Shown: one piece after another, positions 2,140-4,481 of the stretch
Numbering within the stretch: position 1 is the first letter of the stretch
How the letters are laid out: each line of letters begins with the position of its first letter
Source: a virus
Taxonomy: Duplodnaviria > Heunggongvirae > Uroviricota > Caudoviricetes
DNA: 7,842 bases
Virus record (IMG/VR): IMGVR_UViG_2675903654_000004
Strand: one strand, 5' to 3'
Notes under the pieces: generated by a model
What the model saw: the letters and a program-made list of their open reading frames with translations, nothing else
What the model was told of the DNA's origin: nothing
Database searches by the model: none
Made by a program: the position numbers and the translations under genes

Positions 2140-2465
2140 AGACCTTCCGCTGGAAAGTGAAACCCGGTATGGATGTGGCTTCGGTCCCTTCTGTAAGAAA
2201 GGTGCGCTTTGGTGATGGCTATTCTCAGCGAGCGCCTGCCGGGCTGAATGCCAACCTGAAAACGTACAGCGTGACGCTTTCTGTCCCCCGTGAGGAGGCC
2301 ACGGTACTGGAGTCGTTTCTGGAAGAGCACGGGGGCTGGAAATCCTTTCTGTGGACGCCGCCTTATGAGTGGCGGCAGATAAAGGTGACCTGCGCAAAAT
2401 GGTCGTCGCGGGTCAGTATGCTGCGTGTTGAGTTCAGCGCAGAGTTTGAACAGGTGGTGAACTGA
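2136..2465 (+). CDS. M: Tail tip assembly / minor tail protein M (lambda gpM-like), 109 aa
   Basis: ATG at 2136 overlaps the H stop (ATGA); ORF ends TGA 2463-2465. Protein MKTFRWKVKPGMDVASVPSVRKVRFGDGYSQRAPAGL... matches lambda gpM as I recall it; correct size and position. Confidence 0.95.
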   Translation: MKTFRWKVKPGMDVASVPSVRKVRFGDGYSQRAPAGLNANLKTYSVTLSVPREEATVLESFLEEHGGWKSFLWTPPYEWRQIKVTCAKWSSRVSMLRVEFSAEFEQVVN

Positions 2466-3163
2466 TGCAGGATATCCGGCAGGAAACACTGAATGAATGC
2501 ACCCGTGCGGAGCAGTCGGCCAGCGTGGTGCTCTGGGAAATCGACCTGACAGAGGTCGGTGGAGAACGTTATTTTTTCTGTAATGAGCAGAACGAAAAAG
2601 GTGAGCCGGTCACCTGGCAGGGGCGACAGTATCAGCCGTATCCCATTCAGGGGAGCGGTTTTGAACTGAATGGCAAAGGCACCAGTACGCGCCCCACGCT
2701 GACGGTTTCTAACCTGTACGGTATGGTCACCGGGATGGCGGAAGATATGCAGAGTCTGGTCGGCGGAACGGTGGTCCGGCGTAAGGTTTACGCCCGTTTT
2801 CTGGATGCGGTGAACTTCGTCAACGGAAACAGTTACGCCGATCCGGAGCAGGAGGTGATCAGCCGCTGGCGCATTGAGCAGTGCAGCGAACTGAGCGCGG
2901 TGAGTGCCTCCTTTGTACTGTCCACGCCGACGGAAACGGATGGCGCTGTTTTTCCGGGACGTATCATGCTGGCCAACACCTGCACCTGGACCTATCGCGG
3001 TGACGAGTGCGGTTATAGCGGTCCGGCTGTCGCGGATGAATATGACCAGCCAACGTCCGATATCACGAAGGATAAATGCAGCAAATGCCTGAGCGGTTGT
3101 AAGTTCCGCAATAACGTCGGCAACTTTGGCGGCTTCCTTTCCATTAACAAACTTTCGCAGTAA
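2465..3163 (+). CDS. L: Tail tip protein L (lambda gpL-like), 232 aa, with C-terminal cysteine cluster
   Basis: ATG at 2465 overlaps the M stop (TGATG); possible SD AGGTGG at 2452-2457; ends TAA 3161-3163. Protein MQDIRQETLNECTRAEQSASVVLWEIDL... with C-terminal cysteines C173, C182, C205, C208, C212, characteristic of gpL-family proteins. Confidence 0.95.
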   Translation: MQDIRQETLNECTRAEQSASVVLWEIDLTEVGGERYFFCNEQNEKGEPVTWQGRQYQPYPIQGSGFELNGKGTSTRPTLTVSNLYGMVTGMAEDMQSLVGGTVVRRKVYARFLDAVNFVNGNSYADPEQEVISRWRIEQCSELSAVSASFVLSTPTETDGAVFPGRIMLANTCTWTYRGDECGYSGPAVADEYDQPTSDITKDKCSKCLSGCKFRNNVGNFGGFLSINKLSQ

Positions 3164-3168
3164 ATCCC

Positions 3169-3912
3169 ATGACACAGACAGAATCAGCGATTCTGGCGCA
3201 CGCCCGGCGATGTGCGCCAGCGGAGTCGTGCGGCTTCGTGGTAAGCACGCCGGAGGGGGAAAGATATTTCCCCTGCGTGAATATCTCCGGTGAGCCGGAG
3301 GCGTATTTCCGTATGTCGCCGGAAGACTGGCTGCAGGCAGAAATGCAGGGGGAGATTGTGGCGCTGGTCCACAGCCACCCCGGTGGTCTGCCCTGGCTGA
3401 GTGAGGCCGACCGGCGGCTGCAGGTGCAGAGTGATTTGCCGTGGTGGCTGGTCTGCCGGGGTGAGATTCATAAGTTCCGCTGTGTGCCGCATCTCACCGG
3501 GCGGCGCTTTGAGCACGGTGTGACGGACTGTTACACACTGTTCCGGGATGCTTATCATCTGGCGGAGATTGAGATGCCGGATTTTGTGCGTGAGGATGAC
3601 TGGTGGCGTAACGGTCAGAATCTCTATCTGGATAATCTGGAGGCCACAGGGCTGTATCAGGTGCCGTTGTCAGCGGCGCAGCCGGGCGATGTGCTGCTGT
3701 GCTGTTTTGGTTCATCGGTGCCGAATCACGCCGCTATTTACTGTGGTGACGGCGAGCTGCTGCACCATATTCCTGAACAACTGAGTAAACGGGAGAGGTA
3801 TACCGACAAATGGCAGCGACGCACACACTCCCTCTGGCGTCACCGGGAATGGCACGCATCTGCCTTTACGGGGATTTGCAACGATTTGGCCGCCGCATCG
3901 ACCTTCGTGTGA
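3169..3912 (+). CDS. K: Tail tip assembly protein K (lambda gpK-like): N-terminal JAB/MPN (JAMM) metalloprotease domain plus C-terminal NlpC/P60-like cysteine peptidase domain. Maximal ORF 247 aa; the classical lambda K start corresponds to the internal Met49 at 3313 (199 aa)
   Basis: ORF from ATG 3169 (5 nt after the L stop) to TGA 3910-3912. JAMM motif H68-S-H70-x7-S78-x2-D81 (HSHPGGLPWLSEAD) with upstream E19-S-C-G-F-V-V (E-x-x-G-hydrophobic). NlpC/P60-like Cys in TDCYT (C121) and His in NHAAIY (H187) and LLHH (H199/H200). The start is uncertain: no SD precedes 3169, whereas GGAGG at 3297-3301 precedes ATG 3313. Confidence 0.85.
   Translation: MTQTESAILAHARRCAPAESCGFVVSTPEGERYFPCVNISGEPEAYFRMSPEDWLQAEMQGEIVALVHSHPGGLPWLSEADRRLQVQSDLPWWLVCRGEIHKFRCVPHLTGRRFEHGVTDCYTLFRDAYHLAEIEMPDFVREDDWWRNGQNLYLDNLEATGLYQVPLSAAQPGDVLLCCFGSSVPNHAAIYCGDGELLHHIPEQLSKRERYTDKWQRRTHSLWRHREWHASAFTGICNDLAAASTFV
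3791..3798 (+). promoter_or_regulatory. Shine-Dalgarno (GGGAGAGG) for I, 11-nt spacer to ATG 3810
   Basis: Purine-rich GGGAGAGG read directly at 3791-3798, inside the K coding sequence. Confidence 0.55.
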
Positions 3913-4481
3913 AAACGGGGGCTGAAGCCATCCGCGCACTGGCCACACAGCTCCCGGCGTTTCGTCAGAAACTGAGCGACGGCTGGTATCAGGTACGGAT
4001 TGCCGGGCGGGACGTCAGCGCGTCCGGGTTAACGGCGCAGTTACATGAGACTCTGCCTGATGGCGCTGTGATTCATATTGTTCCCAGAGTCGCCGGGGCC
4101 AAGTCAGGTGGCGTATTCCAGATTGTCCTGGGGGCTGCCGCCATTGCCGGATCATTCTTTACCGCCGGAGCCACCCTTGCAGCATGGGGGGCAGCCATTG
4201 GGGCCGGTGGTATGACCGGCATCCTGTTTTCTCTCGGTGCCAGTATGGTGCTCGGTGGTGTGGCGCAGATGCTGGCACCGAAAGCCAGAACTCCCCGTAC
4301 ACAGACAACGGATAACGGTAAGCAGAACACCTATTTCTCCTCACTGGATAACATGGTTGCCCAGGGCAATGTTCTGCCTGTTCTGTACGGGGAAATGCGC
4401 GTGGGGTCTCGCGTGGTTTCTCAGGAGATCAGCACGGCAGACGAAGGGGACGGTGGTCAGGTTGTGGTGATTGGTCGCTGA
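3810..4481 (+). CDS. I: Tail tip assembly protein I (lambda gpI-like), 223 aa: N-terminal ubiquitin-like (beta-grasp) domain ending in Gly-Gly, then a Gly/Ala-rich hydrophobic segment
   Basis: ATG 3810 to TGA 4479-4481. Overlaps the K 3' end by 103 nt in a different frame. Protein MAATHTLPLASPGMARICLYGDLQRFGRRIDLRVKTG... matches lambda gpI as I recall it. ...VPRVAGAKSGG (G100-G101) is followed by VFQIVLGAAAIAGSFFTAGATLAAWGAAIGAGGMTGILFSLGASMVLGG. Confidence 0.92.
   Translation: MAATHTLPLASPGMARICLYGDLQRFGRRIDLRVKTGAEAIRALATQLPAFRQKLSDGWYQVRIAGRDVSASGLTAQLHETLPDGAVIHIVPRVAGAKSGGVFQIVLGAAAIAGSFFTAGATLAAWGAAIGAGGMTGILFSLGASMVLGGVAQMLAPKARTPRTQTTDNGKQNTYFSSLDNMVAQGNVLPVLYGEMRVGSRVVSQEISTADEGDGGQVVVIGR

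Follow-up and report, generated by a model that had tools for sequence, protein, structure and literature searches.

Gene K of a lambda-type tail operon is most likely a single 247-codon gene encoding predicted JAMM/MPN+ and NlpC/P60 peptidase domains

Gene K of phage lambda is classically annotated with 199 codons, whereas in the window studied here (the whole 7,842-nt stretch of DNA that was analysed) its reading frame is open for a further 48 codons upstream. The locus raises the question of where gene K begins and what it encodes when read from that point. Here we argue, with high though not complete confidence, that K is a single 247-codon gene with two peptidase domains, that the classical 199-aa K is an artefact of annotation, and that translation most likely starts at ATG 3169, coupled to L. 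The extension belongs to the gene in its normal state and is no peculiarity of this window.

According to the ORF list, the window carries genes in the order H-M-L-K-I, which make up the tail-tip section of a lambda-type late operon. They are the 3' part of H (ORF 76-2139), M (2136-2465), L (2465-3163, + strand, with its TAA stop at 3161-3163; annotated in lambda and relatives), K (3169-3912, + strand) and I (3810-4481, + strand), followed by the start of J. This order, running on into J, is common to lambda, HK630, Stx phages, Gifsy-2, and a Mannheimia phage. Positions 2465-4481 are 98.6% identical to phage lambda and lambda hybrids, and positions 3100-3420 match a prophage in E. coli 2013C-3342 at 100% identity. 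Two further phage records, MW057783.1 ('Campylobacter phage CJLB-4', 48,361 bp) and OR974322.1 ('lambda isolate', from chicken cloacal swabs), are nearly lambda over this region and share 98.6% identity with the window, as lambda itself does; lambda control DNA, and not a genuine isolate, is their probable source.

A sequence-only reading of the window had noted that the K frame opens at ATG 3169, 5 nt past the L stop, and had equated the classical lambda start with Met49. We reproduced these coordinates: the long ORF spans 3169-3912 (247 codons plus TGA), and Met49 (ATG 3313-3315) matches the annotated K start at 14276 of J02459/NC_001416. The residue numbering on which that reading relied was also correct (A18-E19-S20-C21-G22-F23-V24-V25; H68, H70, S78, and D81), with E19 located 49 residues before H68. 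The 48 codons absent from the classical lambda annotation thus occupy 3169-3312. Taken alone, an open stretch of 48 codons is unremarkable; what makes this one more than chance is that the piece by itself matches a Prok-JAB profile, that its residues are strongly conserved, and that its substitutions fall mostly in third codon positions.

The same reading had predicted that only the 247-aa form would be a catalytically complete JAMM/MPN+ enzyme, and had proposed a profile search of both translations as a check. In that search, only the long form gives a full-length, above-threshold match to Pfam Prok-JAB (PF14464; curated gathering score of 25 bits), with 52.6 bits over residues 3-105 and profile positions 3-113 of 114, in keeping with its predicted completeness. 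The 199-aa form scores 23.7 bits, below the cut-off, and covers profile positions 63-113 only, and the 48-aa piece by itself matches profile positions 3-41 (E=5.8e-5). The NCBIfam desampylase model (NF041370, JAMM family) matches residues 3-115 in the long form only, with a score of 29.9 that is far under its equivalog cut-off of 130. The zinc-ligand motif H-x-H-x7-S-x2-D is present as H68-S-H70-x7-S78-x2-D81 (3370-3411), and the E-x-x-G element that had been proposed upstream of it, E19-S-C-G22, does lie at a family-typical distance, its 49 residues before H68 falling inside the expected range of about 45-60. Glu19 (GAG codon, 3223-3225) is the predicted catalytic, water-activating glutamate of a P-x-E-x-C-G element, which in a PDB profile search aligns with the same element of the solved JAMMs 2KKS, 2KCQ, and PfJAMM1 (5LD9/5LDA).

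The N-terminal domain of K (residues about 1-107, including E19, H68, H70, S78, and D81) is accordingly classified here as a predicted JAMM/MPN+ zinc metallo-(iso)peptidase. It shares the E...HxHx7Sx2D motif and a minimal MPN fold of ~110 residues with stand-alone prokaryotic JAMM/MPN+ isopeptidases (PfJAMM1, 5LD9/5LDA; the haloarchaeal desampylase HvJAMM1 family, NF041370; AfJAMM, 1R5X/1OI0; DSY2949, 2KKS). Unlike these, the K domain is fused to an NlpC/P60 domain, and its gene sits in a phage tail operon next to that of a ubiquitin-like protein, with no E1 or E2.

Alignment of K homologues, which the sequence-only reading had named as a further check, revealed that the residues ahead of Met49 are conserved as well, and none of the intact homologues translated has a stop in 3169-3312. 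Among 16 relatives with 69-97% identity, the N-terminal region is conserved as well as the rest of K. A search of 1.84 billion cluster representatives returned 2743 matches, and in homologues of 230-260 aa with 35-50% identity the alignment begins at query residue about 4-10. Residue counts were made over 94 homologues (31-97% identity), a selection that favoured full-length matches. In this set E19 is present in 93 homologues, C21 in 90, and G22 and N38 in all 94; the zinc-binding residues H68, H70, and D81 are each found in 94/94 and S78 in 90/94, such that E19, G22, and N38 are as strongly conserved as the zinc ligands. The bias towards full-length matches was checked separately: for 102 of 110 cluster representatives of 200-300 aa, the alignment starts at query residue 20 or earlier.

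The second domain of K begins shortly after the first. The NlpC/P60 profile (PF00877) matches residues 111-224 (3499-3840) with 46.7 bits (cut-off 23) over profile positions 1-105 of 105, and the residues of a Cys-His-His triad are nearly invariant (C121 and H187 in 93/94 homologues each, H199 in 94/94). The C-terminal domain (residues about 111-225) is predicted to be an NlpC/P60 (C40) papain-like cysteine peptidase, sharing its papain-like fold and triad with the NlpC/P60 peptidoglycan endopeptidases (MepS/Spr, LytE, CwlO). In contrast to those enzymes, K has neither a signal peptide nor a cell-wall-binding module, and gpK is not found in virions. For this domain, proteolysis during assembly is as plausible a role as hydrolysis of the cell wall.

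AlphaFold2, run on the K homologue alignment, produced a model with a mean pLDDT of 96.8 and a pTM of 0.91, in which residues 1-48 form a helix (3-15) and two strands (21-27 and 30-36), the core helix and hairpin of the MPN fold. In Foldseek searches the N-terminal half retrieved PfJAMM1 (107 columns, rmsd 2.6 Å, TM 0.67 on target), CSN5, AMSH, and Rpn11, and the C-terminal half retrieved MepS/Spr and LytE. On the evidence of the model, the N-terminal half of K has an MPN fold. The classical 199-aa lambda gpK (J02459 AAA96551.1, NC_001416 NP_040598.1) is the same protein as residues 49-247 of the window K; it is without the first 48 residues, hence without Glu19 and the three core MPN elements, and falls below the Prok-JAB threshold. 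A protein starting at Met49, deprived of the glutamate and of these three secondary-structure elements, cannot work as a JAMM enzyme. The 199-aa lambda K is a fragment that probably cannot fold.

Translation signals were the one point that the sequence-only reading had counted against the long form, and both of its observations hold: there is no SD-like purine run before 3169 (AACTTTCGCAGTAAATCCC), and a GGAGG is located upstream of 3313, at 3297-3301, leaving 11 nt before the ATG. The absent SD is nevertheless weak counter-evidence. It counts little because the L stop and ATG 3169 are 5 nt apart, an arrangement that is kept in relatives (3-10 nt), and because an SD does appear where K is uncoupled from L: in Stx2a_WGPS4 (AP012538.1), the sole relative whose K does not directly follow L, an AGGAG stands 5 nt ahead of the long-form ATG. 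From this geometry, translation would start at ATG 3169 by termination-reinitiation coupling to L, with the L stop close enough that an SD would not be needed. Such coupling fits the spacing pattern, which is also seen elsewhere in the operon (overlaps of 4 nt between H and M and of 1 nt between M and L), and initiation at ATG 3169 is probably coupled to L termination.

The Stx2a_WGPS4 locus differs in other respects (L011, 1-500). L was not seen in the fetched stretch of AP012538.1, an antirepressor gene lies directly upstream of K at the usual place of L, and the K protein has a divergent N-terminus (MLYSNILAH...).

Is ATG 3313 then used in addition? Of the explanations that compete with a single 247-aa product, the one that survives best, although we consider it improbable, is that phages keeping the GGAGG-N11-ATG arrangement make two products, the 247-aa protein and, from an internal start at Met49, a 199-aa NlpC/P60 peptidase with an unfolded JAB remnant, in the manner of other nested lambda gene pairs. 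The GGAGG does stand at a usable distance from ATG 3313 as a putative SD of the classical start, but it lies within coding sequence, and its presence is accounted for by the conserved codons E42-P43-E44-A45. Gene finders often call the 3313 start, and 199-aa database clusters exist (P0063, P0064, P0067, P0083); in homologues, however, Met49 is found in only 18/94, with Ile at this position in 57/94. The ATG itself is ATT in ASU11, Stx1_EH1992, and PhiR12_2 and ATA in Gifsy-2, and the GGAGG is weakened to GGAAG in Stx2a_WGPS4 and absent in Gifsy-2. With the methionine mostly replaced by Ile, the ATG lost in close Stx-phage relatives and Gifsy-2, and the GGAGG lost or weakened, the internal start is not under selection, and the comparative data lend no support to the use of both starts. 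Phages whose TAPK has the NlpC/P60 domain only have been noted by Iyer et al. (PMC1779556), which would lend a shorter product some precedent, but initiation at Met49 would remove helix 3-15 and two core strands from what is confidently predicted to be a single domain.

Under the single-gene reading, the 199-aa annotation is explained by one base. A G that is absent from J02459/NC_001416, the 1982 lambda reference, shifts the frame and splits the ORF, as seen from the alignment, frame translations, a published variant, and allele counts. J02459 is one G short of the window and of lambda imm21: it reads GGAGGC-TAT where the window and a re-sequenced lambda derivative read GGAGGCGTAT; the missing base corresponds to G3303 of the window, directly after lambda C14266 (14266/7). 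As a result, the first 45 K codons of J02459 are in a different frame from the sequence from Met49 onward. In a three-frame translation of J02459, the K frame is closed by a TGA that lies six codons ahead of the Met (REYLR, stop, AGGYFRMSPED), and the peptide MTQTESAILAHARRCAPAESCGFVV…GEPEA (MTQTES...GEPEA) continues in another frame, into nonsense. ATG 14276 was annotated as the start of K because it is the first start after a TGA that exists only through the missing base.

The distribution of the two alleles is uneven. Among the fetched loci, the 23-mer without the G occurs in four records only: J02459, its RefSeq copy NC_001416, and two that share the reference coordinates, namely an UNVERIFIED lambda record (strain lambdaS3243) and the cloacal-swab isolate OR974322, which is annotated at those coordinates. 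The G is present in lambda imm21, lambda PV340536, Lambda_AGU, KT232076, HK630, and E. coli prophages, and, among the lambda-derived records examined, also in the imm434 and h434 hybrids and DE3. In the re-sequenced lambda PV340536, the N-terminal region of the K ORF is identical to that of the window K, within surrounding DNA that is 98.6% identical. An exact-match search of IMG/VR returned at least 119 matches to the 24-mer containing the G and 0 matches to the 23-mer without it. The supplier's notes for commercial cI857 ind1 Sam7 DNA presumably list an extra G at 14266. A study of the MutaMouse lambda-gt10 transgene independently reports '14266 C > CG' as one of the constitutional differences relative to a lambda-gt10 reference that was assembled manually for that work (PMC6760142).

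We rejected the allele without the G as a real polymorphism, as it has no IMG/VR match and is confined to the reference, its RefSeq copy, and the two records sharing its coordinates. By the same evidence it is very unlikely that laboratory lambda is truly frameshifted, which would mean that the reference is correct, that a 199-aa K is functional (possibly alongside a separate 78-aa N-terminal fragment), and that the JAB domain is dispensable. According to the literature, genuine laboratory frameshifts do exist in lambda PaPa, at least the one in stf, and four database records are without the G; however, these four reduce to the reference, its copy, and two records of shared coordinates, one UNVERIFIED and one from cloacal swabs, and the G is found in all the other lambda derivatives named above as well as in lambda-gt10 DNA.

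Substitution patterns bear on the extension itself. By Nei-Gojobori counts, dN/dS over codons 1-48 is 0.06-0.37, with a third-position bias, and is similar to that of the rest of K, which indicates purifying selection on the 48 extra codons. That they are instead a decaying, non-translated remnant, open by chance in this window, has a negligible probability and was rejected: there is no SD before 3169 and an open stretch of this length is not improbable by itself, but the dN/dS values, the invariance of catalytic and structural residues across 31-97% identity, and a frame that is open in every intact homologue translated all stand against it.

The 247-aa K is already known rather than new, given that the long form is standard annotation outside lambda, that its architecture was published in 2006, and that the base difference is on record. 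In the two PGAP-annotated E. coli copies examined, K is annotated as a 744-nt 'C40 family peptidase', and its start codon follows L at a distance of 5 nt; many phage records also carry a 744-nt or long-form K CDS, and the largest protein clusters are of 247 aa with both Pfam domains. [quoted passage not shown] The old 199-aa K persists in J02459, NC_001416, and the annotation copies HK630 and lambda imm21, and a 2020 review describes gpK as having 199 residues ('199 in total'), with only one peptidase domain found. The value of the long form is that of a correction worth propagating and not of a discovery: lambda K that is expressed, modelled, or mutated from the reference is a fragment without 48 residues and without the predicted catalytic glutamate.

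Individual records depart from the standard annotation in their own ways. In phage cdtI (NC_009514.1; locus L013, 340-420), the L-K spacer has a 1-bp deletion (TAATCCCATG), and K is annotated from a later start, as 720 nt, despite an intact long ORF. The K region was matched in 4336 of 5426 complete E. coli genomes; the copy in the prophage of E. coli ET915 (NZ_CP100879.1; locus L020, 970-1713) has a stop inside the frame and is marked as a pseudogene, which illustrates how genes of resident prophages decay.

What might the complete enzyme do? TAPK was described as a JAB plus NlpC/P60 protein encoded beside TAPI, a protein whose ThiS/MoaD-like ubiquitin fold has a conserved glycine at its end, and the JAB domain was proposed to release that domain (Iyer, Burroughs and Aravind 2006, PMC1779556). 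By analogy with this family, the K enzyme would act during tail-tip assembly and would not be kept in the virion, and its most likely substrate would be the ubiquitin-like N-terminal domain of gpI, the product of the next gene. Gene I (3810-4481) overlaps the end of K and encodes a ubiquitin-like domain, a Gly-rich hydrophobic linker, and a C-terminal plug domain (ORF, Pfam Lambda_tail_I, PDB 8IYK and 9E7M). The Pfam Lambda_tail_I match, which represents the ubiquitin-like domain, covers gpI residues 14-97. In virion cryo-EM structures (PDB 8IYK, 9E7M), only gpI residues 134/135-223 are resolved (window about 4209-4478), and in the literature gpK was not detected in virions. These three observations are consistent with JAB release of the gpI domain.

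It is possible, and we put it forward tentatively as an idea that may well prove wrong, that complete gpK is the missing tail-tip processing enzyme, with the JAMM domain clipping the gpI ubiquitin-like domain at a conserved ...AKSGG (residues 97-101 of the 223-aa gpI), and that either the JAMM or the NlpC/P60 domain could also cut gpH to gpH*, a cleavage to which a structural paper assigns no catalyst. A lambda ORFeome two-hybrid study recorded no gpK interaction with other tail proteins; were gpK the processing enzyme, this lack would reflect the cloning of a misfolded fragment. A literature search for gpK together with JAMM or MPN turned up no experimental work on the protein. With the 247-aa form, the 2006 hypothesis that a phage JAB peptidase acts on a tail protein with a ubiquitin-like domain can be put to a proper test.

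Annotations of gene I disagree on its start, with ATG 3810, ATG 3849, and GTG 3909 as alternatives. Classical I has 223 aa from ATG 3810; PGAP, PV340536, and KT232076 use 190 aa from GTG 3909, a start codon that forms a GTGA overlap with the K stop. The Lambda_tail_I match begins at gpI Met14, i.e. ATG 3849, and the 190-aa version matches profile positions 26-83 only, leaving the domain truncated. One PDB entry deposits gpI chains of residues 133-222 only. Genes K and I overlap in different frames by 103 nt (3810-3912), or by 64 nt if I begins at ATG 3849. The same DNA encodes the C-terminal helix of K (F233-T-G-I-x-N-D239, which does not vary among close relatives) and the initial strands of the ubiquitin-like domain of I.
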